Origin: an uncultured Clostridia bacterium
GTDB taxonomy: Bacteria; Bacillota; Clostridia; Oscillospirales; Acutalibacteraceae
DNA length: 64,000 bases
Assembly (NCBI GenBank): GCA_937898195.1
Contig: CALEJD010000040.1
Location: 24,052-88,051 of the forward strand
Direction of reading: 5' to 3'
Below, in pieces: positions 49,291 through 64,000 of this stretch. Each line of letters starts with the position of its first letter. The stretch's first letter is position 1. The translations under genes and the position numbers were made by a program. Below the pieces are notes generated by a model. The model saw only the letters and a program-made list of their open reading frames with translations, was not told the DNA's origin and did not search any database.

Positions 49291-49495
49291 TTAATACCCT
49301 CTCCACTTCTGATGTATGTTTAATCCAGTTTATCATTTCTTCTTCTGTATTGCCTGTAATCATCTTTTCATTATCCCATGCTTGACAATCTAAATATGAA
49401 TCAACAATGTCTAAAAGCATGTTATTATTGAACACATATCCCTTATATGTTAGATATTCTGAAAATATATTTTTTATCGTTCTATTGTTATCCAT
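49280..49495 (-). CDS. hypothetical protein
   Basis: Lies between the two methylase paralogs. Confidence 0.55.
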   Translation of the reverse strand: MDNNRTIKNIFSEYLTYKGYVFNNNMLLDIVDSYLDCQAWDNEKMITGNTEEEMINWIKHTSEVERVLNEI

Positions 49496-49497
49496 TA

Positions 49498-50244: not shown

Positions 50245-50265
50245 TTTAATACCTTTCCCTTATTA

Positions 50266-51077
50266 TTAAATACTTTGTAATCTGTTTTTTATAATCTCAC
50301 AATAATCCTCACTCAATTCTATACCAACCCATCTTCTGTTAGTTAGAGTAGCCATTTTTGCAGTCGTTCCACTTCCCATAAATGGGTCTAAAATTATATC
50401 GTTTTCGTTAGACCAAGAAAGTATATGGTCTTTTACTAAACTTTCTGGGAATGGTGCTGGATGCTTTTTAGAAAACTCGTCATGACCTGTAGTTTGGTTA
50501 TATTTCCATATATTGAACCTTCTTCCCATTTTTTTAGTCTCTATCTTACGATACTTTCTACCTTCGTCTGCTGTATATTTATCTCTATTCGTGTTTACGA
50601 CACTATTGCCAACAACTTTATTTTCTCTGTCATATATTAAATTATACGTTGATATTTTTCCTTTAGAAAGTACAAACATATATTCAAAATTTTGAATATA
50701 ACATTTATTACTTCCACATGCACCCACACCATTTTTTTCATATATCATAGTATCGAGTACATTCCAACCAATTTCTTTGAAATATAACGCTTGCTTGAAG
50801 GAAGTTAAAGATTCACAACCGTCTTTTGTTGCATCACCCACAATCCAAACACAAGCCCCCCCGTCTTGGTTACTCTTAACAATTCTTTAGCAACATTTTC
50901 AAAATCAAAAGAATATCCTTCTTTGTATTTTCTTAAATCGTCGTATGGTGGACTTGTAACAGTCAAATCAATACATTCATCATCTATGTCTCTTAATTTC
51001 TTAACACAATCTCCTTGAAGCAAGAATCCAGACTTGTCTTTATAATATGATGTTTTATATAATTCTCTTAAATTCAT
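50266..51077 (-). pseudogene. SPPY-type DNA methyltransferase interrupted by a frameshift at a G7 tract (C7 at 50856..50862 on the plus strand)
   Basis: N-terminal ORF (TSPPYDD...RVTKTGG) and C-terminal ORF (ACVWIVGDATKDG...PFMGSGTT) join into one ~270-aa methylase if the run has 8 G. Confidence 0.75.
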
Positions 51078-51317: not shown

Positions 51318-51629
51318 TTATCTCCTTGCGTTTATACGTTCTATAACATCTTCTGCGGTAAGAAATCCAACAACAGTATCGCCATCTGTTTTCGGGTCAA
51401 CAATGTTGCCATAAATCTCCAGAAGTCCATCTTCATATCCATAAGAACCGTACTGACACATAGCGTCCCATTCACATTCCTTGCCGTCTTTAGGTACACA
51501 AATTTGATGTCTGTCCATAATATATACTGACAAATCTTCATCACATTCCCACCGATGACTAACTTCGTATCTCTCGTATGGTATGTTGTTTTCTTTTAGA
51601 TACACTTCCAGTTTATCGAGTTCGCTCAT
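51318..51629 (-). CDS. hypothetical protein
   Basis: Lies within the operon. Confidence 0.6.
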   Translation of the reverse strand: MSELDKLEVYLKENNIPYERYEVSHRWECDEDLSVYIMDRHQICVPKDGKECEWDAMCQYGSYGYEDGLLEIYGNIVDPKTDGDTVVGFLTAEDVIERINARR

Positions 51630-52291
51630 TATCTATTCTCCTTTAGCCATTTACAATATTCATCCCAATATCCATGCTTGTGTAGCCAGTTATTAGCCTT
51701 TAACATTTCCAACTTCATTTGTGCTTTAGCGTTTGCTCCACAATGAGATTCAATAAATTCATCTTGCGACCTTGCAATCTGCAAACCTTTGAGTTCACCC
51801 CTTGCTTTTTTATATTTGTCCATATCCTTCTCCGGTATGGTATAGGGGGCTTTAGGTAGGTTCCGATTACTAAATGGGGATATGGATGCGCCACTCGTTT
51901 TCAATTTTATAATTGGGGCAAGCGCATCTAAATGCTTGGCATCAAATGTGAAGTACACTTCCCAATCCATAATATCCACATCGTTTACGAATCCAGCGTT
52001 ATGCAATTCATCCACAATTTTATCAACAGATTTACCCCCAACCTTACCAATTACGGACTCGTAATAACTACGCAGGACATTGGTTCCTAATTTCAGTTTT
52101 GGACAGTAGCATGCCAATTCGCTACCAACGCCATGCTTGATTTCAATTCCAGAGCGTCCACTCAAGTAAAAATCTCCAAATGATTCTTCAAGGTTGCCAT
52201 CTTCGTCTCGCACAAAATCATTTGTGCTCTGGTCATAATGCGCCTTAACCCTATACTTCCCTTTATAATGCTGTGCCAGATAGTTATCCAT
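51629..52291 (-). CDS. hypothetical protein
   Basis: ATG 52291 lies 8 nt after AAGGTGA (the track ORF starts at TTG 52330). Confidence 0.6.
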   Translation of the reverse strand: MDNYLAQHYKGKYRVKAHYDQSTNDFVRDEDGNLEESFGDFYLSGRSGIEIKHGVGSELACYCPKLKLGTNVLRSYYESVIGKVGGKSVDKIVDELHNAGFVNDVDIMDWEVYFTFDAKHLDALAPIIKLKTSGASISPFSNRNLPKAPYTIPEKDMDKYKKARGELKGLQIARSQDEFIESHCGANAKAQMKLEMLKANNWLHKHGYWDEYCKWLKENR

Positions 52292-52400
52292 TTTTCTTAT
52301 CACCTTCTTTTGTGGTACTGGAGAACACAATGCGTTTCTCCCCAGCCTTCTTGGGTCTGCCTACAAAGGCATAATTCGATTTCGATTTTGATTTTTCCAT
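52284..52400 (-). CDS. 38-aa basic protein with a GRPKK (AT-hook-like) motif; first ORF of the long leftward operon
   Basis: SD GGAGGT 7 nt upstream; directly downstream of the promoter at 52427..52455. Confidence 0.45.
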   Translation of the reverse strand: MEKSKSKSNYAFVGRPKKAGEKRIVFSSTTKEGDKKNG

Positions 52401-52426
52401 ATCGCTTACCTCCTTCGCTTGCCTAT

Positions 52427-52455
52427 ATTATACCACAAGTTGTGTCGCATGTCAA
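52427..52455 (-). promoter_or_regulatory. perfect consensus promoter heading the replication module
   Basis: TTGACA-tgcgacacaacttgtgg-TATAAT. Confidence 0.75.
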
Positions 52456-52466
52456 CAACTTTTGCA

Positions 52467-52620
52467 GGGGGTGGTTATCCAAATTTCATTTTGAAAACAA
52501 AGTCGCATACTAAAAATCTGATTTCAATTTTCTTTTTTCAACCGGGTGGTTATCCAAATATATATGGCTGAATACGATTTTAATTTAGGATTTTGATTTC
52601 AATTTTCATTTTACCAAAAA
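52467..52620. repeat. repeat block 1: two GGGTGGTTATCCAAAT boxes plus TGATTTCAATTTTC units
   Basis: Boxes at 52467-52484 and 52544-52559; TGATTTCAATTTTC at about 52519 and about 52594; homologous to 61849..61990. Confidence 0.8.
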
Positions 52621-53112
52621 TTGGCACCACCTGCTACCATATACATATACCCTAATTCCTTTAGAAAAATTGAGATAATGATACCTATTTTCGATTTTAT
52701 ATACGATGTGGATACATTACTCATATAGTATATATCCATTCGTTATAACGTGAGTAACGTAACATATTATATTATGGTATATGCGTTATATATATAGATA
52801 TATGTATATACATAATGCATATTGATATGTTATATGTTACGCCGTTTTGCTTCATCGTAGCGTCGTGGCTCAACTCGATGCCAAGATATACATGTTCATT
52901 GACATTTGCGTTTAGATTATCTACGACACGTTCATAATTAAATTTATTTGCTATCGTTTTGGTGTAGGTTGGCTTTTGTTTATATATTATGCTTTCATTA
53001 AACACAATGTTAAAATTACAACGATACATTGAAGCAAAATCAACAACACGCTTTAATAAATCAAAATAACAAAACAAAATTTATTAACATAAAACGTGTT
53101 AATAAATCAAGA

Positions 53113-53150
53113 TAAGGTGTTTAGTTCTAACTTTCATACTAAACACCTTA
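53113..53150. terminator. perfect 13-bp stem hairpin (possible end of a leftward non-coding transcript)
   Basis: TAAGGTGTTTAGT-12 nt-ACTAAACACCTTA. Confidence 0.45.
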
Positions 53151-53455
53151 AACAAAATGGAGGTAAAAAAATGAAAAACACGCTTTCCTTCTTTTTATTT
53201 TTCAAAATCAATTTATAAAACAAAATTAATTTTGAATTTTGAAAATTGAATAATATTTTTGTGGGAGTTTTTGTTTTGCGCACTTTACCCCTTCGCTCGT
53301 CGCAAGCCTATATATTATGGGGGAAACTGATTGCGCGTACTTTACCCCTTTTCACACACCCTATACGCTTTCACACGCTAATGCGTTAATGCGCGTCGCA
53401 CTTTATCACGTTATCACGCTAATGCTTTAGCGAATGAAAGTGCATAATTATTCAC

Positions 53456-53530
53456 GAAGAACGTGCGTTTGCAAACATTTGTTCTTGCCGAAATCAGTCG
53501 CAAACATTCGTTCGCAAACGCACGTTCTTC
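53456..53530. repeat. perfect 17-bp inverted repeat with a 41-nt spacer
   Basis: GAAGAACGTGCGTTTGC ... GCAAACGCACGTTCTTC. Confidence 0.9.
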
Positions 53531-53752
53531 ACGTTCCCGGATACTTGTCAAAATTTTCCTGTAAATTTTTGACAAATTATTTTTTTGCATCTTGAGTGTT
53601 TGCGACTATAGATTCCAATTATCTGCCATTCCGTTCTTAAACATAACTTATTTGTTCAGATTGAACAAACAAGTTTTCTCCGTTTCTGATTCCAATTATC
53701 AGAACGTGAAATATTAAATTGTATTTTTTACTGTATCCTATTGACTATATAC

Positions 53753-53781
53753 ATTATACCACTTATTGATACTAAAGTCAA
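53753..53781 (-). promoter_or_regulatory. consensus promoter firing leftward into gene-free structured DNA
   Basis: TTGACT-17 nt-TATAAT with TGG. Confidence 0.6.
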
Positions 53782-53826
53782 GAGAAAATTTTATAAAACA
53801 TACAGAAAATATTTTTTTAAAAAATG

Positions 53827-53855
53827 TTGACAATAGATGCAAAGTATGGTATCAT
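53827..53855 (+). promoter_or_regulatory. rightward promoter, divergent from 53753..53781
   Basis: TTGACA-17 nt-TATCAT with TGG; followed by GGGGAAGTGTGAAGTGTAA and A17. Confidence 0.55.
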
Positions 53856-54121
53856 AAAAAGGGGAAGTGTGAAGTGTAAAAAAAAAAAAAAAAACGAATG
53901 GGAAACGATGGTATTTCTTATTCAAGATGCACGATTCTGTACAATATGCCCATCAGACGCTCTATTTTACGTTTTGGCGGGATTTATAATGTAAAGGATG
54001 TTTATATTGACTACCTATATAAAAGTCCATTAGAACGTAAATTAGGGCTTCCATATATTTCCAATTCAACAGAATCGGGACGCATGCTTTAATGCTTTAG
54101 TGTGATAAAGTGAATGTGGAT

Positions 54122-54158
54122 AAAAAAATGATGGTCTGTGTTAACCATCATTTTTTTT
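54122..54158. terminator. bidirectional rho-independent terminator
   Basis: A7-ATGATGGT-ctgtgtta-ACCATCAT-T8. Confidence 0.75.
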
Positions 54159-54163
54159 CTGTT

Positions 54164-54352
54164 TTATCTTTTGAGATTGTATTTTAACACCAAATCTTCG
54201 ATGTCCTCTTCTACCTCCATTCTGTTATCCGCACTTGACCAAAACTCATCATCTACATACGTTTCGTAGTGTTCCATTACTTTTCTAACCTCAATATGAT
54301 AAGCGAGCATTCTGTCATCGTACATTGTCATTCTATCTACTACGTTTTTCAT
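54164..54352 (-). CDS. 62-aa acidic early protein
   Basis: SD AGGAGGT; own promoter and terminator. Confidence 0.7.
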   Translation of the reverse strand: MKNVVDRMTMYDDRMLAYHIEVRKVMEHYETYVDDEFWSSADNRMEVEEDIEDLVLKYNLKR

Positions 54353-54393
54353 CTTATACCTCCTGTATGTTCTGATGTCTTTAACTTGATTAC

Positions 54394-54422
54394 ACTATAC
54401 CATACCATCGGTATGTTGTCAA
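54394..54422 (-). promoter_or_regulatory. early consensus promoter
   Basis: TTGACA-17 nt-TATAGT with TGG. Confidence 0.7.
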
Positions 54423-54737
54423 GTATTTTTTTTATAAATTTTTCTGCAAAATATTTTGCACCATAATTGCCATGTTTACATAGAACATCGTACACAAAAT
54501 ACTTACTACCATTTCTTTCCAATAAATCGGTAAATCGAAAAATAATAGCTTATAGGCATATGCTTCTGTTTTTCCTATCGTTTGAAATAGATTGTATAAG
54601 TACAAAAATTTCATCGAGAACAGGGGAAATCGTCGATTTAAGCGATTTTTTAAAAGAAAAGGTATTTTAGTACGCCAAACCCCCGAAACCCCCAAAACTT
54701 TAGCACGTTAAAACTTTAATGTGATAAAGTTTTGGCA

Positions 54738-54768
54738 ATAAAAAAATCGGATTAATACATCCGATTTT
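54738..54768 (-). terminator. rho-independent terminator (leftward)
   Basis: AAATCGGAT-taataca-ATCCGATTT followed by T7 on the minus strand. Confidence 0.65.
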
Positions 54769-54953
54769 CCATAATAAATATAATTCTATCCGCTAATTCA
54801 TTCATCTGTTTTTCTGTAATATGCTTCCATTTATAGCACCAATCAATTCTATTGCATATCCAATCAATGCTTTTGGTTTTGTAGTTGTATACACAATTTT
54901 ATTACTTTATCACTTTAACGCACTAAAGTTAAGGGGTAAAAATAAAAGAACAT

Positions 54954-55148
54954 TTAATGTTCTTTTATCTCTTCAAACCCAATGAAATTGATTATTGAAT
55001 ATTTCACTACATCATTATTATATCTAATAAAATTGAATGTATCATTTACCTGTTTCAGCGTTTCACCGTCAACGTGTTTAATAATTGGTGAACCAATTAA
55101 CTTACCATTGTTGTCTTTTCTGAAATAACTATAAGTGATTCTAAACAT
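54954..55148 (-). CDS. 64-aa early protein
   Basis: SD GGAGGT. Confidence 0.65.
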   Translation of the reverse strand: MFRITYSYFRKDNNGKLIGSPIIKHVDGETLKQVNDTFNFIRYNNDVVKYSIINFIGFEEIKEH

Positions 55149-55250
55149 AATATACCTCCATAAAGCTCTAATTTTAGTTTTAAACGTGTCTTATATGCTC
55201 ATTGATAGTTTATATTATCTTTATATAAAACACGCTTAAATCGCCATTTT

Positions 55251-55811
55251 TTACCTTGATTCCATATAACTATATCTTGGCGTACTTGTCAAAATCTGAC
55301 AATTACTTTTTTCTGCGTCAAATCTCAAATCGCTTCCGCATTTTCCACATCTATAGTTATGGTAATTTTTGGTAAATTTACTTGCACGTTCTCTGATAAT
55401 AACTTGCCCACATCCTTCACATACAAATACATAATTATGCTTCTTTTCTCTTGTTGGTTTTTCAATTCCAAAATCTGAATATGAATTTGTGCGTGTGATT
55501 GTATACTTTGTGTTGCGTGTTACATAATCCGCCAATCTTTTCCATTCATTTTTATGCGTCATGCAATCCTTACATGTGTGCAATACCTCATGGATAATTG
55601 TACTCATAATCGCAACATCATTAGCATTGTCATCAAAGATAAGATAGTTAAAATTAAGTGAATATGTATTTGTTACGTTATTTCTTCTACATTGTCCGAA
55701 TCTGTTTTTAGCACGATAGTTCAATTTGACTTCAACGATGTTACCATACTCAATATTTAAGTCATCAAGAATTTCAAGTGCACTATGATACATTTCCATA
55801 TAGTTTTTCAT
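55251..55811 (-). CDS. SprT-like zinc metalloprotease with a C-terminal Zn ribbon
   Basis: RFGQC..., HEVLH (HExxH), CEGCG...CGKCG; ATG 55811 after GGAGGT lies downstream of the promoter, so the longer track ORF is unlikely. Confidence 0.65.
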   Translation of the reverse strand: MKNYMEMYHSALEILDDLNIEYGNIVEVKLNYRAKNRFGQCRRNNVTNTYSLNFNYLIFDDNANDVAIMSTIIHEVLHTCKDCMTHKNEWKRLADYVTRNTKYTITRTNSYSDFGIEKPTREKKHNYVFVCEGCGQVIIRERASKFTKNYHNYRCGKCGSDLRFDAEKSNCQILTSTPRYSYMESR

Positions 55812-55852
55812 TTCATACCTCCGATAATGTATGTGCTTTATCTTACGATAAC

Positions 55853-55881
55853 AATATATCATACATCGTTATATTTGTCAA
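55853..55881 (-). promoter_or_regulatory. early consensus promoter
   Basis: TTGACA-17 nt-TATATT. Confidence 0.65.
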
Positions 55882-55924
55882 GTTCTTTTTTAAGTACAAT
55901 TCTTTAGTGCTTTAGTGTGATAAA

Positions 55925-56116
55925 TTACCTTACATCCTCCATTTCCATATGTGGATATTTCTCTTTAAGCATTAACATAATTTCATGGTATGTTGCAAAA
56001 TAATCTTTTTCCTCAAGATAAGAATAACTAAACAGAAATTCATCCATGCTTAACGTCATAAAATCATGCATTTTGTTCATGTCATCCGCAAATGTCCAAT
56101 TACTAATATCCTTCAT
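55925..56116 (-). CDS. 63-aa acidic early protein
   Basis: SD AGGAGGT. Confidence 0.7.
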   Translation of the reverse strand: MKDISNWTFADDMNKMHDFMTLSMDEFLFSYSYLEEKDYFATYHEIMLMLKEKYPHMEMEDVR

Positions 56117-56156
56117 GTTAACCTCCTATAATGTTACACTATCAATTTACAATATC

Positions 56157-56185
56157 ATATTATCATACATTGGTTTATTTGTCAA
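56157..56185 (-). promoter_or_regulatory. early consensus promoter
   Basis: TTGACA-17 nt-TAATAT. Confidence 0.65.
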
Positions 56186-56230
56186 GTAAAATGTGCAAAA
56201 TATTTTTATAAATATTTTTCTAAAAACTAC

Positions 56231-56259
56231 TTGACAAACGTTGAAAAATATGTTAATCT
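56231..56259 (+). promoter_or_regulatory. rightward promoter, divergent from 56157..56185
   Basis: TTGACA-17 nt-TAATCT; followed by GGGGAAGTCTAAGTCTAA and an A run. Confidence 0.5.
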
Positions 56260-56295
56260 AATAGGGGAAGTCTAAGTCTAATAAAAAAAAGATAT

Positions 56296-56324
56296 AAAAA
56301 AAACGGTCTGAATTTTCAGACCGT
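56296..56324 (-). terminator. rho-independent terminator (leftward)
   Basis: ACGGTCTG-aattttc-CAGACCGT followed by T8 on the minus strand. Confidence 0.7.
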
Positions 56325-56332
56325 TCCTATAT

Positions 56333-56527
56333 TTACAACAAATCAGTTTCCATTTCCCTAATATAAAATTCATCCATATCATAAAGTTTTTTAATAAGTT
56401 CTAATTTTTCCCTTGCTCTTTTTTCGCTTGCGTATGCCATAATCATACTACTGGTTATAACATTGTCTTTAGATTTTGTTTGTAATGATATAACACCAAA
56501 TTTATCACATATTGCATATACTACCAT
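56333..56527 (-). CDS. 64-aa early protein
   Basis: SD GGAGGT. Confidence 0.65.
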   Translation of the reverse strand: MVVYAICDKFGVISLQTKSKDNVITSSMIMAYASEKRAREKLELIKKLYDMDEFYIREMETDLL

Positions 56528-56549
56528 AATTTACCTCCAAATATTTATG

Positions 56550-56993
56550 TCAATTTTTTTCTTCAACCATTTCTTTAATGTCATCAATTGTAATGGTTTG
56601 ATTTTTATAATTTTCAAAGAGTGCCTTGCAATCATCTACTGTAGAACAAATATTGTTGCAAATACAAGTGTCGCAATCGTTACAAAAATCTTCAAAGTCA
56701 TTTTCAAGTTCTAAACTTTCAATTGATTCATTCAAAGTTTCTTCCATTTCATCTTCGGGCAAATTTCCATTTTCTGTCAATCCAATATTCTCATAAATAT
56801 AGTCACGTTCAAACCATATAAAATCGTTTACTTCCGTATCAGTCGGAACATTATCACAAAACACCATCTCAAGAAAATCCATAAATTCATTTTCTTTGTT
56901 TGCGTTCTGAATGTCTGCAATAGTATCTATTGCTCCACTCCATACCATATCAGCAAGTTCATAAAACCCATTGATTTCTTTTCTAACTTCCAT
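56550..56993 (-). CDS. 147-aa strongly acidic early protein
   Basis: SD GGAGGT; D/E-rich with a CNDCDTCICNNIC cluster. Confidence 0.7.
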   Translation of the reverse strand: MEVRKEINGFYELADMVWSGAIDTIADIQNANKENEFMDFLEMVFCDNVPTDTEVNDFIWFERDYIYENIGLTENGNLPEDEMEETLNESIESLELENDFEDFCNDCDTCICNNICSTVDDCKALFENYKNQTITIDDIKEMVEEKN

Positions 56994-57031
56994 GTTGTTA
57001 CCTCCAATTATATAACCTTTAACATAGTTAT

Positions 57032-57060
57032 ACTATATCATGCTTTATTGTCATTGTCAA
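57032..57060 (-). promoter_or_regulatory. early consensus promoter
   Basis: TTGACA-17 nt-TATAGT. Confidence 0.7.
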
Positions 57061-57067
57061 GTATTTT

Positions 57068-57295
57068 TTAATAATAATTTTTTGGTGCGTTATCAATTTC
57101 TCTGCGAGTAAATCCCATTTCCAAAAGTTTCTTAATCATGGTTTCTTTTTTAACATACCACCTTAATTCAATATCATGGTATGTAGAATTATATACTTGA
57201 TTTGACGGTCTTGTGTATGAATTCATTTTATATAATTCTAATTCATAACTATTATTCATTGATTTTAATTTATATCCATAATATGTTCTTCTCAT
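57068..57295 (-). CDS. 75-aa early protein
   Basis: ATG 57295 lies 6 nt after GAGGTG. Confidence 0.6.
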   Translation of the reverse strand: MRRTYYGYKLKSMNNSYELELYKMNSYTRPSNQVYNSTYHDIELRWYVKKETMIKKLLEMGFTRREIDNAPKNYY

Positions 57296-57308
57296 TTTAT
57301 GCACCTCA

Positions 57309-57578
57309 TTATTCCATCATTTCATTAATGTAAATCGTTTCTCTGTCATCATGTTTAAGCCATGATACCCATTCACATTCTACTTTTATATTACGTCTGT
57401 TAAGCACTTCTTTCCACATGTCGTTAATGAACATATAAAAATCATTTAATGCTTCTGCTTTTGCGTTATCTTTATTATTAGAGATTACGATTTCACTATA
57501 CAATTTTTCGTTTCTAATTCCACTAAATATTGTATTTGTTCTTCCGTAAATTGTTACATAATATTTCTTCATGCTCAT
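57309..57578 (-). CDS. 89-aa early protein
   Basis: SD GGAGGT. Confidence 0.65.
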   Translation of the reverse strand: MSMKKYYVTIYGRTNTIFSGIRNEKLYSEIVISNNKDNAKAEALNDFYMFINDMWKEVLNRRNIKVECEWVSWLKHDDRETIYINEMME

Positions 57579-57592
57579 TGTCTATACCTCCA

Positions 57593-57841
57593 TCAATCCC
57601 ATCCTAACATTTCATATATTTCATCCATGTTAAATGGTTTACTATTTACATCGTGCTTCGGTGTATCTAATATCTTGTCAATTCTCGCTTGTTCTGTTTT
57701 GTGTTGCCATAACAATGGTTCGTTACCTTTTACCATATTTTCTGTGACTGTATATCTTTTTCCCCTATATTCATATTCAAGATATACGGTTTCCCTGTCG
57801 TATCCTGTGCCATACCATTTATCAATAAATTTTGCCTTCAT
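57593..57841 (-). CDS. 82-aa early protein
   Basis: SD GGGAGGT. Confidence 0.65.
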   Translation of the reverse strand: MKAKFIDKWYGTGYDRETVYLEYEYRGKRYTVTENMVKGNEPLLWQHKTEQARIDKILDTPKHDVNSKPFNMDEIYEMLGWD

Positions 57842-57869
57842 TCTTTCAACCTCCCTTATTTACAATACC

Positions 57870-57898
57870 ACTATACCATATTTCAATCCCATTGTCAA
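57870..57898 (-). promoter_or_regulatory. early consensus promoter
   Basis: TTGACA-17 nt-TATAGT with TGG. Confidence 0.7.
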
Positions 57899-58290
57899 CA
57901 ACTTTTTTTCAACAAAATAAAATAAAAAAAACTACCATTTTTTCAATGTTTTTTACCACTATTTTATAAAATTACGTTCGGCAAATCGCAAATTAGAGCC
58001 TCGCAAAAATCAAAAGAATGTTGGAATTTCAACGATTATAGCCATTCTTTAGCACTTTAGTGTAATTTTGCCATATAGTTATACCTTGAATTTATGTATT
58101 TTTATGCAAATTTCATACATAAATCGTTATAAATGTTGAAATTGCAAGGGTTTCGACGTTTTTACCTATCGTACAACAAGCCTAAAATAAGCCTAAAATC
58201 GTCGATTTAAGCGTTTTTCCCAAAATATGGTATGAATACTCATGTATATTATACATAAGGGTTGGCACGATACTTGCATAGCCAAATTTG

Positions 58291-58546
58291 CTTTAATGCT
58301 TTAGAATACAAAAGTAAAATTTTACTTTTGTACTTTATAATTTGAATACTTTAATTTGCTAAAGTGTAACATTATAATCCACTTTTATGTTGTAAAGCAT
58401 TAAAGCATTATCGCTTTAATATGGTAAAGTTATAAAATATTAACGTCTTAATACATTAAAATATCATTGCTTTAATATGGTAAAGTCTTGTGTATTGAAT
58501 ATTGTATACACATTTTTAGCACATTAATACTTTAATGCGTTAAAGT
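58291..58546. repeat. gene-free cluster of ACTTTA-N6-TAAAGT palindromes, a 22-bp perfect palindrome and a TGTATACA palindrome
   Basis: Sites at 58348, 58413, 58469 and 58529; CAAAAGTAAAATTTTACTTTTG at 58309-58330; TGTATACA at 58503-58510. Confidence 0.85.
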
Positions 58547-58556
58547 TTTTGAACAT

Positions 58557-58594
58557 GAAAAAAGGTTACCAATATTTTACACGGTAACCTTTTC
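58557..58594 (-). terminator. rho-independent terminator (leftward)
   Basis: AAAGGTTACC-12 nt-GGTAACCTTT followed by a T run on the minus strand. Confidence 0.7.
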
Positions 58595-58629
58595 CAATTT
58601 ATTTATAGGAGGTTTTAGAGAATTTCTGA

Positions 58630-59193
58630 TTAATAATCATATTGTACTATTCTACCATCCCAAAGTTCATAATAGTAACCATCTTCAATAATCGCTTCGC
58701 CAAGTCCTTCATAATCAATATAATTTGTTAACCAAGATTCAATATTACAACATTCATCAACATAATTTTCTGCAACGTCATACGCATCATTCCATACATA
58801 CGATATAATACTCATATCAAAATAATCATTGTTGTAATTGTTAAGCACTTCTTCAACATCTTCTTCGTTAAGTGCGTATTCATCATGCATCTTTTCAATT
58901 TCAGATTCACGCACATATGATTCAAATTCTTCATGTTCACCATTTGCAATCATATCAGCAACATCGCTAAACGTATCATCGCCATCAGTATTTTTCATAC
59001 GATTAAACACATCTTTCGTAACCCATGTTTCAACATCATCAAAATCTTCATCAATACGCACACTACAACGTGCATTTGATACAATAGGTTTACCACTATA
59101 ATCTAAATGAATTATGCCATCACTATTAAGTTCAATATATCTGCATCCATCGCATTCATCTTTAATTCTATAAAGGATAATGTACTTACTCAT
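58630..59193 (-). CDS. ardA: ArdA-like anti-restriction protein (acidic DNA-mimic family)
   Basis: C-terminus YDVAENYVDE...LTNYIDYEGLGEAIIEDGYYYELWDGRIVQY parallels Tn916 Orf18 ArdA YDVARYYIEE...LQNYIDYQAYGRDLDLSGTF...GIFEI (recalled from memory); very acidic. Confidence 0.55.
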   Translation of the reverse strand: MSKYIILYRIKDECDGCRYIELNSDGIIHLDYSGKPIVSNARCSVRIDEDFDDVETWVTKDVFNRMKNTDGDDTFSDVADMIANGEHEEFESYVRESEIEKMHDEYALNEEDVEEVLNNYNNDYFDMSIISYVWNDAYDVAENYVDECCNIESWLTNYIDYEGLGEAIIEDGYYYELWDGRIVQYDY

Positions 59194-59207
59194 ATTTATA
59201 CCTCCAA

Positions 59208-59750
59208 TTACGCACGTTCTTCAACTTCGTTAAGCAAATCTTCAACTTCAGTTTCGCAAAACTCGCCAATACTTGTATCGTTATCCCAATCCCAAACATT
59301 ATAGCACTCTGCCATAATATCTATATCACAACAATATTTACCATCGGCAATGGTTTTATATTGCATACGAGATTCAAGTTCAAACCATTCTGTTTCATCG
59401 TCAAATCTTACTAAAAATCTATCCGTATAATTTGCTCTTACATCACCATATCTATGTACCATAATCGCCATATATGTATATCCATTTATTCCCAATTCTG
59501 CTACATCAATATCGTGGTCTATATTAGCATTCCAATTATAAGTATTCCATCTATGGGCTGCATGTTCTACAATCCAATCAATTGACTTTCCTGTAGTTTC
59601 AATTTCATAATCCTTTAATTCATAAAGCAATTCAAGAACATTGCCACAAATTACATCATCTTTAATTTCACCGTTCGGCTCATATATCCAAGCCTTACAT
59701 TCTTTATTGACTTCCTTAATATCCTTAATTACTGCGTCCAATCTTGTCAT
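59208..59750 (-). CDS. 180-aa acidic early protein
   Basis: ATG 59750 lies 8 nt after GGAGGT (the track starts at TTG 59765). Confidence 0.65.
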   Translation of the reverse strand: MTRLDAVIKDIKEVNKECKAWIYEPNGEIKDDVICGNVLELLYELKDYEIETTGKSIDWIVEHAAHRWNTYNWNANIDHDIDVAELGINGYTYMAIMVHRYGDVRANYTDRFLVRFDDETEWFELESRMQYKTIADGKYCCDIDIMAECYNVWDWDNDTSIGEFCETEVEDLLNEVEERA

Positions 59751-59793
59751 ATTCATAACCTCCAATTATGTTATAACTTTATCTTACAATAAT

Positions 59794-59822
59794 ACTATAA
59801 CATATCTTTAATCATTTATCAA
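59794..59822 (-). promoter_or_regulatory. early promoter
   Basis: TTGATA-17 nt-TATAGT. Confidence 0.6.
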
Positions 59823-59961
59823 GTGTTTTTTTTAACAAATAATCAATATCCGACAATTTACTATTCATCGCCAATTGCAAATCAATACCATTGATTCCAA
59901 TTTTTTCCAATTCCCTTTTTATCTCGTTTTGTTTTGTTATTGGTAGTTCTGCAATATACAT
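59812..59961 (-). CDS. 49-aa early protein
   Basis: Weak SD AGGAAA; starts right after the upstream stop. Confidence 0.4.
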   Translation of the reverse strand: MYIAELPITKQNEIKRELEKIGINGIDLQLAMNSKLSDIDYLLKKTLDK

Positions 59962-59962
59962 T

Positions 59963-60109
59963 TTATTTATTTCCTAACTTTATTCTTATAATTTTATGCT
60001 CCAAAATCTTTAGTTCATCTTTTTGATGGTTATATTCCATTTCAATTCTTTTGCCTTGCTTTAATTTCTGTGTAATTACCTCTAATGCTTCCTTATTAAT
60101 ATATTCCAT
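59963..60109 (-). CDS. 48-aa early protein
   Basis: SD GGGAGGT 5 nt upstream. Confidence 0.55.
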   Translation of the reverse strand: MEYINKEALEVITQKLKQGKRIEMEYNHQKDELKILEHKIIRIKLGNK

Positions 60110-60126
60110 TTATTACCTCCCAAATT

Positions 60127-60549
60127 TTACCATTCTTCATCTTCTTCATCTTCCAAAAGTGCCCAATGAATACTTCCATCACAATCCGCATCCATATAGT
60201 CCTCAATAGATTCATCCCATAAATTGTTCATGTCAAATGTTCTATAAAGGAAATTTGCAAGCTCCAATGGGTTTTTATAATAGTGTCTTTCAAGTTCCTT
60301 TGTCGGGCGCATACCACCATCAGCATAAACATAAATTGTAATGAGATTATCATTATCCACCATTAGTTTAATATATCCCATTTCATTTTCATGGAACACC
60401 ATAAACTCACAAACACGCTCGTTACAATTCCAGTCAAAATCTGTACCATCATTACCATTCATATAGTAAATTTTTCCATCAAGTTCATTTCCGATAATTG
60501 GATATTCTTCCCTAACTTCATTAATAATGTTCAAAATCTGTTTAAGCAT
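60127..60549 (-). CDS. 140-aa acidic early protein (ends EDEEDEEW)
   Basis: SD AGGAGGT. Confidence 0.7.
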   Translation of the reverse strand: MLKQILNIINEVREEYPIIGNELDGKIYYMNGNDGTDFDWNCNERVCEFMVFHENEMGYIKLMVDNDNLITIYVYADGGMRPTKELERHYYKNPLELANFLYRTFDMNNLWDESIEDYMDADCDGSIHWALLEDEEDEEW

Positions 60550-60587
60550 ATGTTACCTCCTATTACATAACTTCTTTTAACACATAT

Positions 60588-60616
60588 ACTATATCATACA
60601 TTGGTTATATTGTCAA
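60588..60616 (-). promoter_or_regulatory. early consensus promoter
   Basis: TTGACA-17 nt-TATAGT. Confidence 0.7.
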
Positions 60617-60625
60617 GTATTTTTT

Positions 60626-60922
60626 TTAGATTTTGTTAAAATCTTCATCATACCAATTTCCATCTTTATCCAATGTATATTCCGATACCTTCCAAAATTC
60701 CCTTACGCAATATTCAAGTTCTTCAATACTCTTCAAATCATCAAAATGTTCATAAGCACAAATCGTATATACATATGTTGTTAGGCAATTCAATTTTGCT
60801 TCTGCATTAAGTTCGTCATATGTGAGAAATGTTTCTTCTCCCATATCATTCAATTCATCTTCAATTAATGTAATTACATTACTTGACAAACACATGTGCT
60901 CTATTACATCGCCTAAATTCAT
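60626..60922 (-). CDS. 98-aa acidic early protein
   Basis: ATG 60922 lies 6 nt after GGAGGA. Confidence 0.65.
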   Translation of the reverse strand: MNLGDVIEHMCLSSNVITLIEDELNDMGEETFLTYDELNAEAKLNCLTTYVYTICAYEHFDDLKSIEELEYCVREFWKVSEYTLDKDGNWYDEDFNKI

Positions 60923-60924
60923 CC

Positions 60925-61122
60925 TTATTCCTCCATCCAATCATACCATGAGCGCACTTCATCTTCATGCAATCCCATATCAACATAAATTCCTATAAGT
61001 TCTTCACGTTCCTTAATATTTCTATAATTGTAATAATTATCCAAATGTTCACCAATCCAATTGCACATATTAGTTAACAAGTTTTCAATTTCTGCATTTG
61101 TATAGTCATTATGCCAAGTCAT
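60925..61122 (-). CDS. 65-aa acidic early protein
   Basis: SD AGGAGGT. Confidence 0.65.
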   Translation of the reverse strand: MTWHNDYTNAEIENLLTNMCNWIGEHLDNYYNYRNIKEREELIGIYVDMGLHEDEVRSWYDWMEE

Positions 61123-61125
61123 AAT

Positions 61126-61341
61126 TTACCTCCTATCAATCGTACCAAGCCAACTATTGAATTCATCCCAATCAACTTCACACACATCATAGTCCTCAAA
61201 GAATTCAAGAACATTCTCAAACATATTCTTACAAGCGATAAATTCATCATCAGAAAGTTTTGTACCTTCATAAAGTGCTTCAATACAATCGTTTACATCC
61301 ATGTTTGTATTGTGAAATCTGCAATAATTCATATTTGCCAT
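61126..61341 (-). CDS. 71-aa acidic early protein
   Basis: SD AAGGAGGT. Confidence 0.65.
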   Translation of the reverse strand: MANMNYCRFHNTNMDVNDCIEALYEGTKLSDDEFIACKNMFENVLEFFEDYDVCEVDWDEFNSWLGTIDRR

Positions 61342-61352
61342 ATCGTACCTCC

Positions 61353-61445
61353 TTAATAAATACCATCAATATAATGATTTCCAAGCCCTGTAATAATAGT
61401 CACCAATGCGAAAGCGATAATCGCCTTTATTGTTTCTCTATCCAT
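61353..61445 (-). CDS. 30-aa hydrophobic micro-protein
   Basis: SD AGGAGGT 6 nt upstream; first ORF after the promoter at 61492..61520. Confidence 0.4.
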   Translation of the reverse strand: MDRETIKAIIAFALVTIITGLGNHYIDGIY

Positions 61446-61491
61446 ATTCAACCTCCTACCATATCAATTATTATTTTTCAATTTCAACGTA

Positions 61492-61520
61492 ATTATATCA
61501 TATCTGTTTTTATTTGTCAA
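61492..61520 (-). promoter_or_regulatory. early consensus promoter
   Basis: TTGACA-17 nt-TATAAT. Confidence 0.7.
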
Positions 61521-61827
61521 GAAAAATCTCAATATTTTTCATTCCAAAATATTCCAATGTTAGTACAAATGCGACAAGATTTTTCACGTTATGATTATTG
61601 ATTTTTCTTTTTTCATTCGCATAATCTTCAAATGCAAATCGAAAAGCATAAAGGTCATAAGCCATACCACGCATCACAATATCCTCTAACCTATCATCCC
61701 AATGCTCATTTTCCATTGTGTGATACTTAATAAAATCCTCTGCATAATCCTTTTCCTCAATATAATGGTCATAAAATCTCCCCATAAATTCAAATCCATC
61801 CATTGTAATTTCTGTTTTGATTTTCAT
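61510..61827 (-). CDS. 105-aa early protein
   Basis: SD GGAGGT. Confidence 0.65.
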   Translation of the reverse strand: MKIKTEITMDGFEFMGRFYDHYIEEKDYAEDFIKYHTMENEHWDDRLEDIVMRGMAYDLYAFRFAFEDYANEKRKINNHNVKNLVAFVLTLEYFGMKNIEIFLDK

Positions 61828-61848
61828 TTCATACCTCCGATTACATAA

Positions 61849-61990
61849 GGGGTGGTTATCCGATTATCAAAATCAATAAGGGGTGGTTATCCAATTATTG
61901 ATTTCAATTTTCGTTTTTTGATTCTGAAATTGATTTCATTTTTCATTTTTTGATTTTGAAATTGATTTCATTTTTCAATTTTTCATTTTG
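61849..61990. repeat. repeat block 2: two ATAAGGGGTGGTTATCC boxes plus three TGATTTCAWTTTTC units
   Basis: Boxes at 61849-61864 and 61880-61895; same orientation as block 1. Confidence 0.8.
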
Positions 61991-62056: not shown

Positions 62057-62085
62057 ATAATATCATATCTCGTTTTATTTGTCAA
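62057..62085 (-). promoter_or_regulatory. early consensus promoter with a ~230-nt leader containing repeat block 2
   Basis: TTGACA-17 nt-TATTAT. Confidence 0.65.
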
Positions 62086-62931
62086 TACCTTTTTTTATTT
62101 TGTTTTATTTTTTTTATCATGCGCATGTTATATATAATGTATGCTTTTGATTATAAGTATATTGTTGTTGTTATTTTTACATACAATATTTTTCATATCA
62201 CCTTATAACGCTTTAATTTGCGTTTTAAGCGATTTTTTATATTGAATGATAAATTACCTTACATTGATACAAAATGCTCTTAAAACTTAAAATAAGCACA
62301 TTAAACACTCGTTTTTAGGGATAATCATATAACATCATGTATTATTTTTCTACCATATTATTATATGTGATTTTGATATAAAAAAAATAATCAATTTGTT
62401 ATCAAAATATTACTAATTTGTTTATGAAAAAATAAACAAACATGCTTTAAGAATAAAGAAAAAGATTTTAATGATTTAATACTTTAATTAATTAAAGTAA
62501 AAAAAATGAAACAATACGCTTTAAGAATAAGAAAATAAAATCAATTTTACTTTTTTTCAATTTAACACTTTAATCAATTAAAGTGTTATCAAAAAAAAAC
62601 ATTATCAAAATCAAAATTCAAAATTAAAAGAATTTTTAAGAATAAAAAAATCAAAAAAATTTTCATTTTTTTTTCAAAAATCTCTGTGGCATATATATAT
62701 GGGGAAATATAAAAAACGCACTTTACCCTCCGCAAGCGAGTCCCCCTCTGCTTTTTCACATTAAAGTAATGAATCGAATCAAATTTTAACGCTTTAACGC
62801 TTTATCGCTTTAATTGAATAAAGTGCATATTCATTCATTCCAAATTTTTCCATTTTTGGCAATTTTTCCATTTCTATTTTCTTCCATAAACAAGCGTTTG
62901 CGCTCGCCTGTTCTGTCAGATTTTGGAAGTG

Positions 62932-62965
62932 AACAATTGTTTTTATCCATATAAAAACAATTGTT
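62932..62965. repeat. perfect 15-bp-stem hairpin / cruciform
   Basis: AACAATTGTTTTTAT-ccat-ATAAAAACAATTGTT. Confidence 0.9.
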
Positions 62966-62968
62966 TGT

Positions 62969-62977
62969 TGTGGATAA
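62969..62977. promoter_or_regulatory. perfect DnaA-box 9-mer
   Basis: TGTGGATAA (reverse complement TTATCCACA), 3 nt from the 15-bp hairpin. Confidence 0.4.
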
Positions 62978-64000
62978 CCCACGTTATCATTCTACCACAA
63001 ATTAGTATTAAATACAATGCAAAAATTTTTGCATTTCATACGCTAATACTTTAATGTATGAAAGTTATTTTTATAGTATCGTGCAATTGTATATTGTATA
63101 CACAATTTTAATACTTTAATGCAATAAAGTGCCTCTGTCAGAAACCTTTACAATTTAATACTTTAATTTAATAAAGTATGTATATTGTATACATCTTTTA
63201 ATACTTTATAACTTTAATTGATTAAAGTATTAAAGTATACAATTTTGCATACTGTATACAATATTTTATTGCTTTAATTGAATAAAGTGTTAATGTGTTA
63301 AAATATATATTTGCATATTGTATACAATAGTTTAATGATTTATCATTTTAATATTTTAACTTGCTAAAGTATTTTATACGTTATAACTTTATTGAATTAA
63401 AGTATTAAATTGTTAATATGGTAATATTTTAATGTGTTAAAGTTTTGTATACAAAACACACAAAAATACATTGATTTTTTTATGGTCTGAAATTTATTTT
63501 TTGTATCGGGAAATCGAAAAATAAAGCCTCAAAAAATCTTAAAAAATCGCTTAATTGCAAGGGTTTGAGGCGATTTTTTAACGCTTTAGCGTATTTTTGT
63601 CATGTAGTTATACCTTGAAATTATAAAAATTTTTTTGTTTTTGCACACAAAAACGCTCGAAAGCCTTGTACCGCAAGGGTTTGCCGACTTTTGATTTTGA
63701 AAAATTAGCGCAAAATGACGCCTTATTTTTTGATTTCCCGGTTTTTTGTGTGTTGTGGTCTGATTTTATTGTGTGAAAACACAATAATGATTGGTATAAC
63801 TTTTGCATAGGATAATTTTTGCTTTAGCATATTAAAACTTTAATGCGTTAAAGTAAGAATCACGTACACTTTAGCACGTTAAAATTTTAATGTATTAAAA
63901 TTTCTTGACCAAAAAAATAGTAAAAAATGGTAAAATTTTGGCATAAATTTTGCTACATTATATATAAAAAAGGCACTAAAAAATAATTTCAAAACATGCA

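Follow-up and report, generated by a model that had tools for sequence, protein, structure and literature searches.

Two conserved non-coding arrays at the edges of an early-gene island in an uncultured gut/rumen phage

The uncultured gut/rumen phage of about 100 kb studied here carries two non-coding arrays of about 190 bases, one at each edge of a fast-evolving island of small early genes. A preliminary description of the 64-kb stretch of DNA that was analysed (the window) had offered regulator or initiator binding sites, among them sites for host DnaA, or else recombination boundaries of a mobile cassette. On sequence grounds, the two blocks are best read as old paralogous copies of one cis-acting array, and regulator or initiator binding sites remain the most reasonable class of explanation for them.

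Boxes and units in the window

The GGGTGGTTATCC box is present in exactly four copies in the window, all on the plus strand (52469, 52544, 61850 and 61881), and the TGATTTCAWTTTTC unit in five copies (52519, 52594, 61899, 61931 and 61963), two of which belong to block 1 and three to block 2, as had been counted before. Shuffled sequence gave none of these: the extended box pattern GGGTGGTTATCCRAW has four matches compared to 0.00 expected (100 shuffles of the 64-kb window), and 0.00 copies were likewise expected for the unit. The genes of the region are encoded on the minus strand, on which the box reads GGATAACCACCC. Both blocks align with 75% identity, in line with their proposed homology. 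Small corrections concern the boxes themselves, whose starts had been placed 1-2 nt off; at 52544 the leading run counts only three G residues, and the boxes of block 1 continue with AAA and not with the (A/G)AT tail assigned to them. The features are, in the direction of transcription:

62057..62085, minus strand, first early promoter, TTGACA-17-TATTAT with TG, from which array 2 is transcribed as part of a leader
61897..61990, minus strand, array 2 units (61964-61976, 61932-61944 and 61900-61912), contained in a tandem repeat with 2.9 copies of 32 nt
61881..61892, minus strand, array 2 box B, an exact box
61850..61861, minus strand, array 2 box C, which follows box B by 31 nt and stands 10 nt ahead of the first early gene's GGAGG
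61510..61827, minus strand, first early gene, 105 aa, no known family
52621..61848, minus strand, early-gene island, about 20 small family-less ORFs and a SprT-like gene
52595..52607, minus strand, unit GAAAATTGAAATC of box A, starting 52 nt upstream of it
52544..52555, minus strand, array 1 box A (GGATAACCACCC), an exact 12-mer
52520..52532, minus strand, unit GAAAATTGAAATC of box B, starting 52 nt upstream of it
52469..52480, minus strand, array 1 box B, which follows box A by 75 nt and stands 13 nt ahead of the -35 hexamer
52427..52455, minus strand, strong sigma-A-type promoter after array 1, TTGACA-17-TGgTATAAT, 12/12 matches and TG
51629..52400, minus strand, first replication-operon genes: a 38-aa ORF (52400-52284, first in the operon) and a conserved 220-aa protein (52291-51629, 113 homologues)

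Counted upstream from boxes B and C, the second and third units of array 2 start at 52 and 51 nt, respectively. The positions reported earlier for both blocks were verified: block 2 is found downstream of the promoter at 62085..62057 and ahead of the first early gene, and block 1 lies directly upstream of the -35 element of the perfect promoter at 52455..52427. The latter heads an SPbeta-like replication operon, and the gene types of the replication module are Sak4-like, YorH-like, DnaB-like, primase, RecJ-like and DnaE. An AlphaFold2 model of the 220-aa protein (pLDDT 93) gave no fold match in the PDB. Within the island, nine strong minus-strand promoters are found in 9 kb, together with two internal gene-poor repeat regions. 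With an array at only two of the 17 strong minus-strand promoters, a role as a general early shut-off device is excluded.

Conservation and geometry of the arrays

The relatives are metagenome sequences with 51-98% identity to the neighbouring 220-aa protein, and the array was found in every one of them; it is absent from relatives at 33-41% identity. Orthologues of the array 2 boxes are present in L109, L104, L107, L108, L111 and L118, and orthologues of array 1 box A in most block-1-type relatives (L091, L094, L097, L099, L102, L105, L106, L110 and L118). Both arrays are seen together in three genomes, the window, L101 and L118, and in all three, which are those with both ends visible, they bracket the early region as proposed. 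In every relative, the replication module is headed by array 1. Because the arrays, which mark both island edges, are kept in all relatives, we consider them real control or boundary signals. The genes between them behave differently: they are reshuffled one by one among relatives, with island lengths of 6.8 to 9.4 kb, and the identity of the first early gene changes from relative to relative.

A full array consists of up to three boxes with the sequence GGATAWCCACCC(C) on the transcribed (minus) strand, with 74-77 nt from box A to box B and mostly 31-32 nt from box B to box C. In every array seen, each box is preceded by a GAAAWTYGAAATC unit whose start is 51-53 nt upstream, and a metagenome scan that allowed unit-to-box gaps of 47-55 nt returned only gaps of 51-52 nt. 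GAAAWY hexa/heptamer repeats with a period of 6.25-6.75 nt surround boxes and units throughout the array. Eleven three-box arrays gave a nearly gap-free alignment with 74% mean identity and diverged spacers; the internal distances are kept while the spacer sequence drifts. The box core TGGATATCCA is a 10-bp palindrome in many copies. In addition, the box variants within one genome depend on position: L118 has GGATAACC, GGATATCC and AGATAACC in array 1, and GGATAACT followed by GGATAACC twice in array 2, and the same pattern was seen in L097, L099, L102, L105 and L110.

Every array adjoins a strong sigma-A-type promoter, array 2 being downstream of the first early promoter and array 1 upstream of the replication-operon promoter. 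An equivalent of the first early promoter precedes every block-2-type array, which begins about 18-100 nt past it and finishes 10 nt before the ribosome-binding site. Block-1-type arrays are followed by a sigma-A-type promoter 13 to 52 nt past the last box in every relative read out. Those of L097, L099, L101 and L106 also have a promoter of their own upstream, whereas no convincing promoter was found directly upstream of array 1 in the window, L091 and L094, yet the geometry is kept.

Possible functions of the arrays

We tentatively favour, as a possibility rather than a probability, that the array is a double-stranded DNA scaffold for the cooperative binding of a predicted sequence-specific protein beside two gateway promoters. 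Several copies of one such protein, phage- or host-encoded, would occupy the array cooperatively, and the bound complex would gate transcription at both entrances of the early programme. At array 2 it could stand as a roadblock in the way of RNA polymerase from the upstream promoter, and at array 1 it could insulate or modulate the replication-operon promoter. The position-specific variants of the three boxes might provide graded affinities, as in tripartite phage operators. In favour of such a scaffold are the rigid geometry, in which the spacings of 31-32 and 51-53 nt approximate 3 and 5 turns of the helix, the non-random occurrence and conservation of the array, the palindromic core and position-specific variants of the boxes, the lack of a conserved RNA fold, the strong promoter beside every array and the array 1 copies that keep their distances with no convincing promoter ahead of them. 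Several observations count against a DNA scaffold: the A-B spacing is about 7.2 turns and thus non-integer, the A-rich repeats do not follow a 10.5-nt period, and the boxes never overlap -35 or -10 elements. Since the last box is 13, 15, 16, 17, 19, 26, 37, 38 or 52 nt away from the downstream -35 element without helical phasing, a direct activator-type contact is unlikely. Nor was a binding protein recognised, as the genes that come first behind the two arrays vary between relatives and gave no match to a DNA-binding family.

All arrays are oriented with transcription and most are transcribed from a nearby promoter, which would also fit a role at the RNA level. The array might be an A-rich leader without structure, in which a predicted RNA-binding protein, for instance one that is ring-shaped or multimeric, recognises the GAAAWY repeats and the GGAUAWCCACCCC boxes and controls transcription elongation, the stability of the RNA or how the first early gene is translated. 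The sense orientation of all arrays, the stretch from promoter to ribosome-binding site that the block-2-type arrays fill, the upstream promoters of the four block-1-type arrays and the repeat period, which suits single-strand-binding proteins, are in line with this, as are a 10-bp hairpin with box B of array 2 of the window in its loop and a stem with wobble and compensatory changes that encloses unit A in L102, L105, L106 and L110. We nevertheless regard it as distinctly unlikely. Such local stems are restricted to particular lineages, the 11 arrays have no consensus structure or covariation (RNAalifold, -2.24 kcal/mol and zero covarying pairs), array 1 has a fold z-score of +0.5 and an Rfam search with the array gave no match. 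Flexible unstructured RNA would also hardly explain distances fixed over about 190 nt, array 1 of the window, L091 and L094 has no convincing promoter ahead of it, and the boxes of block-1-type arrays precede a second promoter, so that they are missing from the operon's own transcripts. Somewhat less improbable, but still unlikely, is that the arrays are replication origins, or an origin and a cis-acting helper, with the boxes as iterons for a predicted initiator; the A+T-rich repeats and the very A+T-rich neighbouring DNA would unwind and the strong promoter would provide transcriptional activation. The place of array 1 at the head of the replication module, the direct repeats in one shared orientation, the 1.5-2.2 kb of gene-poor A+T-rich DNA upstream of both arrays and the promoters reading into most of them agree with an origin. 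However, no initiator was recognised, the adjacent 220-aa protein having no known fold, the boxes are 31 and about 76 bp apart whereas classical iterons are contiguous, and box C of array 2 is very close to a ribosome-binding site. The cumulative GC skew has its minimum at 62-64 kb but says little on an origin, as the skew follows gene orientation. Similarly, DnaA-like 9-mers are mildly enriched in the window (40 compared to 27.5 expected), with a cluster at 51972-52715, but the part of this cluster within the 220-aa gene is a product of Val-Asp(-Lys) codons. That the boxes are themselves host DnaA sites, coupling early or replication gene expression, or DNA entry, to DnaA, had been suggested because of their similarity to DnaA boxes, and we now judge it very unlikely. 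TTATCCAAA differs from the DnaA box TTATCCACA by one mismatch, the variant GGATATCCACCC includes TATCCAC, the 7-nt DnaA-box core, in the other register, near-perfect and perfect DnaA boxes are found at 52707, 54115 and 62969, and T5-like phages retain DnaA boxes in early untranslated repeat regions. However, the part that is invariant across relatives is GGATAWCCACCC(C), of which the 5' GG and 3' CCC(C) fall outside any DnaA box, while the positions relevant for DnaA vary: the CACA end is replaced by AAA, AAT or GAT in one register, and in the other one position is A or T and a terminal C stands where the DnaA box has A. A unit at a fixed 52 nt also has no counterpart in DnaA biology. The sequence previously listed as a fifth copy is indeed a perfect DnaA box (TTATCCACA, minus strand, 62969-62977), but it does not belong to the box family: it points the other way, has no GGGTGG part and is retained solely in the closest relative L109, not in L118 or L101.

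The remaining readings concern the island as a whole. It could be, or be part of, a long direct terminal repeat or first-entering segment of the kind found in T5, SPO1 and Twort-like phages, with the arrays as boundary, cutting or injection-stop signals. Its content of family-less small ORFs, closely set strong promoters and untranslated repeat regions is typical of such segments, and contigs L096, L100, L102, L112 and L122 break 0.05-1.7 kb upstream of array 1. Conserved non-coding arrays within a hypervariable gene set are likewise seen in the T5 long terminal repeat (preprint 10.1101/866236), and the terminal repeat of T7 is flanked on both sides by one-orientation arrays of a 7-bp motif. 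We consider such a putative terminal redundancy improbable on balance, as repeats and strain variation can account for the contig breaks, and the long contigs of relatives are rotations of one circle, which would fit a collapsed repeat and a permuted genome equally. Array 2, past the first early promoter and just before a ribosome-binding site, would also be an awkward genome end. Least plausible of all, and in our view extremely unlikely, is the mobile early-gene cassette, exchanged by the phage XerD-like recombinase or as a module, of which the blocks would be the recombination boundaries. It would explain the direct repeats on both sides of the island, and a XerD-like recombinase gene with all six catalytic residues lies 4 kb away. 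However, among the relatives the island is a patchwork of genes in differing orders that is never lost or exchanged as a unit, no relative without the island or with a whole swap being found, and the boxes do not have two inverted arms around a 6-8-bp spacer. Frequent recombination between the arrays is disfavoured, since it would have erased the position-specific differences that both arrays keep across lineages. Between the window and L094, the identity rises from 82-88% to 97-98% in a sharp step exactly at box A, which suggests that the conserved boxes may serve as patches for ordinary homologous recombination.

Comparison with known systems

In the two-site origins of SPP1 (oriL/oriR) and P4 (ori/crr), the same short direct boxes are found at two distant places, of which one is beside or inside the replication genes, with A+T-rich DNA adjacent. 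The two arrays share these traits, but their boxes are widely spaced, no initiator is recognised and one array lies in a 5' leader. The lambda OL and OR regions, with up to three related sites each that are conserved and position-specific, flank a block of genes, as the arrays do. In lambda, the sites are 17-bp near-palindromes that overlap their promoters and are set about 24 bp from one another, whereas the boxes described here are asymmetric, stand off the -35 and -10 elements and are each tied to a companion unit 52 nt away. In T7, both copies of the 160-bp terminal repeat have CCTAAAG-type repeats just inside them, so that there, too, a defined stretch of the genome is bracketed by two one-orientation arrays of a single short motif. 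They consist of a single 7-bp motif with a 13-bp period and have no bipartite unit-box module, and the bracketed segment is 160 bp of non-coding DNA instead of a 7-9-kb gene island; any role of the T7 arrays is likewise putative.

The T5 terminal repeat contains untranslated repeat regions with DnaA-type boxes and a constant 52-bp spacer (5 turns), which are a candidate injection stop signal (10.1101/866236). As in the phage studied here, these non-coding regions keep order and spacing while the surrounding early ORFs vary, DnaA-box-like motifs are present, a constant distance of about 52 bp is reported, and related copies of the regions are found at two places of the early region. The T5 copies are mutually inverted and carry pairs of true DnaA boxes, whereas the copies here are direct and their motif is not a DnaA box; the function of the T5 regions is itself only proposed, and a terminal repeat of the present phage is hypothetical. 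In SPbeta, MrpR, a protein that has lost the XerD catalytic residues, binds one element at the promoter of yorE, the gene with which the replication operon begins (PMC10516654). This SPBRE operator was recovered as ATACAAAAAATATGTAT, overlapping the -10 element, and has no resemblance to the box. What the two phages share is an SPbeta-like replication module and a protein of the tyrosine-recombinase fold, with weak MrpR_C_cat matches in relatives, although the recombinase-like protein of the window, unlike SPbeta MrpR, keeps all XerD catalytic residues.

Box and unit arrays at the edges of the early-gene island

The 12-mer GGGTGGTTATCC is present exactly four times in the window, at 52469, 52544, 61850 and 61881 and always on the plus strand, and its 15-nt extension gives four matches versus 0.00 in shuffled sequences. 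The companion unit TGATTTCAWTTTTC is found five times (0.00 in shuffles), twice in block 1, the array beside the replication-operon promoter (array 1), and three times in block 2, the array before the first early gene (array 2). The counts, positions and strand of boxes and units agree with the preliminary description apart from coordinates that differ by 1-2 nt, and the homology of the two blocks claimed there is confirmed by their alignment, which gives 75% identity. As the minus strand carries the genes from approximately 16 kb to 62 kb, the array is to be read on this strand, on which the box reads GGATAACCACCC and its companion unit GAAAATTGAAATC. The main features are as follows:

32275-35436, DnaE-type polymerase
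47637-48467, minus strand, 276-aa XerD-like tyrosine recombinase (integrase family)
51629-52291, minus strand, 220-aa protein, second ORF of the replication operon
52455..52427, perfect extended -10 promoter of the replication operon
62085..62057, promoter of the leader that precedes the first early gene

The -35 of the replication-operon promoter starts 13 nt after the end of block 1, and a 38-aa ORF followed by the conserved 220-aa ORF is located downstream of this promoter. Block 2 lies within the leader of the first early gene, whose GGAGG is found 10 nt downstream of the last block 2 box. A fuller array, as seen in relatives of the phage, comprises three boxes, termed A, B and C; in the window, block 1 has lost C and retains A and B, and block 2 has lost A and retains B and C. 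The interleaved units of block 2 still precede its two boxes by 52 and 51 nt.

The window derives from an uncultured phage, which possesses SPbeta-like replication genes, which, besides the DnaE-type polymerase (best match 43% identical at the protein level), code for a RecJ-like exonuclease, a DnaB-like helicase, a primase, a YorH-like protein and a Sak4-like protein. Megablast searches with 52-64 kb of the window gave no match to cultured phages. The contigs of the relatives are 97-106 kb in length and are rotated circles. Seventeen near-consensus TTGACA-17-(TG)TATAAT promoters are found on the minus strand between 21243 and 62085, 10 of them between 52.4 and 62.1 kb, and the plus-strand structural genes (1-15.6 kb) have a single near-consensus site at 14148, which is without the TG extension. 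This scarcity of promoters suggests that transcription of the late genes relies on a different polymerase or factor, as it does in SPbeta-like phages. Three adjacent genes for N6/N4 DNA methyltransferases and a gene for an RtcB-type RNA ligase are also present (48529-50841 and 35854-37077), and the number and type of the methyltransferase genes vary among close relatives.

Conservation of the arrays and patchwork of the island

The contigs of 113 metagenome homologues of the 220-aa protein were fetched for comparison, which covered loci of 20 kb. Boxes are present upstream of the orthologous operon, in the same orientation, in every relative down to 51% identity; they are absent from relatives at 33-41% identity, in which the gene order is different. 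The spacing is 74-77 nt between boxes A and B and mostly 31-32 nt between boxes B and C, and each box is preceded by a unit whose start lies 51-53 nt before it. When JGI metagenomes were scanned for the bipartite unit-box pattern with a permitted distance of 47-55 nt, only distances of 51-52 nt were returned. Eleven three-box arrays could be aligned nearly without gaps at a mean identity of 74%, with invariant boxes and units and diverged spacers; the invariant columns are TTGGATA.C.A.CC (box A), GGATA.CCACCC (box B) and the TGAAATC unit. A strong promoter always adjoins the array, and the distances to it vary (18-100 nt to an upstream and 13-52 nt, unphased, to a downstream promoter). The array is an autonomous module.

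Further searches were made. No record was found for the first early protein of the window itself. A tblastn search with the 220-aa protein gave a single remote uncultured record, and scans of IMG/VR yielded only single chance matches to the box, no relative of the 220-aa protein and no bipartite pattern. With a loose pattern, at least 119 chance matches were obtained in genome contigs, and among the matches listed no locus had two boxes close together; the only unit-plus-box match among them, in a Ureibacillus genome (L138), is located inside an 830-aa ORF and was discarded.

Both arrays are seen in three genomes, namely the window and the metagenome contigs L101 and L118. In all three, one array is located downstream of the first early promoter and ahead of the first early gene, and the other comes before the strong promoter that heads the replication operon. 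The distance between the two is 6.8 to 9.4 kb. Array 1 of L118 contains the boxes GGATAACC, GGATATCC and AGATAACC, whereas its array 2 contains GGATAACT and two copies of GGATAACC, and the array 1 pattern recurs in L097, L099, L102, L105 and L110. Due to this position-specific difference and the recurrence of the array 1 pattern, the two arrays are, as judged from their sequences, old paralogues, each under its own constraint, rather than copies of recent origin that recombination has homogenised.

The island between the arrays contains approximately 20 small ORFs without a family match and one SprT-like gene. Nine strong minus-strand promoters lie between the arrays, compared to seven across the 28 kb that comprise the replication genes and the later genes of the minus strand. 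Island genes are shared among relatives as a patchwork and in differing orders, and the module downstream of array 1 is syntenic. No relative was found that lacks, inverts or exchanges the island as a unit, and all three genomes that could be followed end to end retain it. The suggestion that the blocks bound a mobile early-gene cassette is therefore not borne out, as the island content varies gene by gene and is not absent or swapped as a whole in any relative seen. Nucleotide identity between the window and the relative L094 rises from 82-88% upstream to 97-98% downstream in a sharp step at box A. This step fits ordinary homologous recombination in which the conserved box would serve as the patch, and lends no support to a dedicated cassette mechanism. 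A site-specific recombination site of the dif, att or lox type was also considered and rejected, as two inverted arms around a 6-8-bp central region were not found; the core of the box consists of a spacer-less palindrome of 8-10 bp, after which comes the asymmetric CCC(C).

Taken together, the two arrays are real, conserved and unusually rigid cis-acting elements that mark both edges of a hypervariable early region.

Candidate binding proteins and neighbouring elements

The preliminary description had considered the boxes to be DnaA boxes. As criterion for such a box, we used the 9-mer TTATCCACA or the relaxed consensus TTWTNCACA, with the CACA end kept. The boxes read TTATCCAAA, TTATCCAAT or TTATCCGAT in the register of that description and ATAACCACC or ATATCCACC in the other register, the GGATATCCACCC variant in the opposite register includes TATCCAC, and the relaxed consensus is matched in neither register. 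The DnaA assignment is not supported: the invariant parts of the box, the leading GG and the trailing CCC(C), are both outside the DnaA box, and the DnaA-critical positions as well as the bases flanking the TTATCC core vary across relatives. The window has slightly more DnaA-like 9-mers than expected (40 versus 27.5), and a cluster of them inside the 220-aa gene is accounted for by Val-Asp(-Lys) codons. The perfect DnaA box at 62969, which had been taken as a related copy, is conserved only in the closest relative, L109, and not in L118 or L101. DnaA is possible as a co-factor, but does not explain the element.

No DNA-binding family was found next to either array in searches of Pfam and PHROGs with the island genes, the operon-head genes of five relatives and the replication module; the genes that come first after each array vary from relative to relative and matched no such family. 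For the 220-aa protein, a confident AlphaFold2 model with a pLDDT of 93 and a pTM of 0.80 was obtained; searches of the PDB by sequence and by fold returned nothing for this protein, nor did it match any Pfam or PHROG family. The 276-aa recombinase is encoded inside the replication module of an otherwise virulent-looking phage and is conserved in all relatives. Since all six XerD catalytic residues are kept, it is probably an active recombinase, which could, for example, resolve dimers or a plasmid-like state. In this respect it differs from MrpR of SPbeta, which has lost its catalytic residues (PMC10516654). The 15-bp MrpR site SPBRE, derived here as ATACAAAAAATATGTAT and common to nine of the ten MrpR-bound SPbeta promoters, is unrelated to the box, and an MrpR operator was rejected. 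By eye, the box also bears some likeness to the 16S rRNA 3' end, a T-box sequence and CodY, CsrA and IHF sites; these resemblances are weak and leave the invariant positions unexplained.

Several other elements are found in the vicinity. The motif (A)TACATTATATATA, an ATACA...TGTAT inverted repeat like the SPBRE, is present at 62129-62141 and, on the other strand, at 63954-63966, as well as in L103, L104, L107, L108, L109, L111 and L118. All block-2-type arrays have it approximately 160-250 nt before their first box and some 55 nt before the -35 of the first early promoter, in surrounding DNA that varies; L102 and L110 have palindromic forms (TACATTATATGTA) close to array 1. An operator-like palindrome, ACTTTAAT-N4-TTAAAGT, is present in many copies (window 62465-63918, 58289-58563 and 53400-54930; L118 4350-5211) and may be a candidate site of a different regulator. 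The pattern CTTTAA-N4-6-TTAAAG has 19 matches in the last 14 kb of the window, concentrated in three gene-poor early regions. In L118, a further 11 are found in the non-coding DNA that precedes array 2, and L101 has none. In two non-coding regions, the ACTTTAAT palindromes are adjoined by a 66-nt repeat family centred on TGYATAYTGTATACA, which has five copies in the window (58487-58552 and 63079-63368). A perfect 15-bp inverted repeat, AACAATTGTTTTTAT / ATAAAAACAATTGTT (62932-62965), directly adjoins the perfect DnaA box at 62969-62977, and a one-mismatch DnaA box (62943-62951) overlaps its left arm. Directly upstream of array 1 is a very A+T-rich, TATATA-type low-complexity stretch (52640-52840; compare L094 3900-4200), the segment most divergent (30-67% identity) from the otherwise 98%-identical L094. 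The gene-poor region upstream of array 1 also contains a short gene of the plus strand (53898-54092), which codes for 64 aa and is antisense to every gene around it, with its own strong promoter (53827), a bidirectional terminator (54122-54157) and a homologue of 78% identity in L091.

Possible functions of the arrays

The array could act as RNA, as part of a sense leader: every array is sense to transcription, a strong promoter is located 18-100 nt before all block-2-type and several block-1-type arrays, A-rich repeats recur with a period of 6.25-6.75 nt, and in one subgroup a stem around unit A shows compensatory and wobble changes. However, RNAalifold on the 11 arrays gave a consensus of -2.24 kcal/mol with six trivial pairs and no compensatory change or covariation, no Rfam family was matched between 51000 and 64000 on either strand at E values up to 1, and the geometry of array 1 is kept in the window, L091 and L094 although no convincing promoter precedes the array there. 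Single leaders folded with shuffle z-scores of -2.4 and +0.5. A structured cis-acting RNA, such as a nut/put-type antiterminator, a riboswitch or a leader, was rejected for want of a conserved covarying structure or an Rfam family. Distances fixed over approximately 190 nt of drifting, unstructured sequence are the constraint of a stiff double helix and not of a flexible RNA; the distances of 31-32 and 51-53 nt correspond to about three and five helical turns, and the core TGGATATCCA is a palindrome. Based on the missing RNA consensus, the promoter-less copies of array 1, the rigid, near-integer spacing and the palindromic core, we favour a DNA-level nucleoprotein complex over a role at the RNA level, without certainty. 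DNA curvature does not fit, as the A-tract period is 6.25-6.75 nt and not 10.5.

For such a complex, we tentatively propose, as the best-supported mechanism, that several copies of one putative sequence-specific protein bind the array cooperatively. The complex at array 2 would form a roadblock to RNA polymerase, and the complex at array 1 would either insulate the replication-operon promoter or modulate its activity; in their gradation, the box variants would be reminiscent of tripartite operators. The earlier idea of binding sites for a putative regulator or initiator is retained as the right class of explanation. A repressor operator overlapping the promoter was rejected, as the boxes overlap neither the -35, the -10 nor the transcription start: the array 1 boxes are 13-52 nt upstream of the -35, and the array 2 boxes occupy, relative to the predicted start, about +150 to +210 in the case of the window and about +70 to +200 in most other block-2 arrays. 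Ranking second to cooperative binding, and in our view unlikely, is a putative origin, or an origin plus helper site. The array heads the replication module, and its two to three (rarely one) direct boxes with flanks of 24-33% G+C resemble iterons in an A+T-rich setting, but a cognate initiator was not recognised in the genes examined. We consider it less probable still that the arrays are boundary signals of a putative long terminal repeat or first-entering segment, a reading that is based on analogy and comes third, after the origin; it would account for homologous arrays flanking one segment in the window, L101 and L118.

The early regions of large virulent phages evolve too fast for nearly any comparison between relatives. 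Here, a non-coding array of approximately 190 nt is the most conserved feature of the early region and stands at both its edges, and it therefore offers a handle on how this clade of approximately 100-kb Firmicutes-type gut and rumen phages with SPbeta-like replication genes starts its programme, be it as a control point of the first transcripts and the replication operon, as an origin or as a terminal-repeat boundary. Its sequence can serve as bait for the protein that reads it, its strict distances allow a simple experimental test, and it provides a practical marker of the early region in metagenomic contigs of this clade.

The array pair can be regarded as a variant of familiar repeat arrays, i.e. 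operators, iterons or terminal-repeat flanks. The island resembles the early terminal repeats of T5, SPO1 or Twort-like phages. In T5, the variable terminal repeat contains conserved untranslated repeat regions with DnaA boxes and a constant 52-bp spacer (preprint 10.1101/866236), and in T7 the terminal repeat has arrays of a single short motif on both sides, just as two arrays flank a segment here. If the arrays did bound a terminal repeat, the bipartite unit-box modules would constitute a new kind of genome-end, cutting or injection-stop signal, with a logic analogous to that of the flanking arrays of T7 and the stop region of T5.
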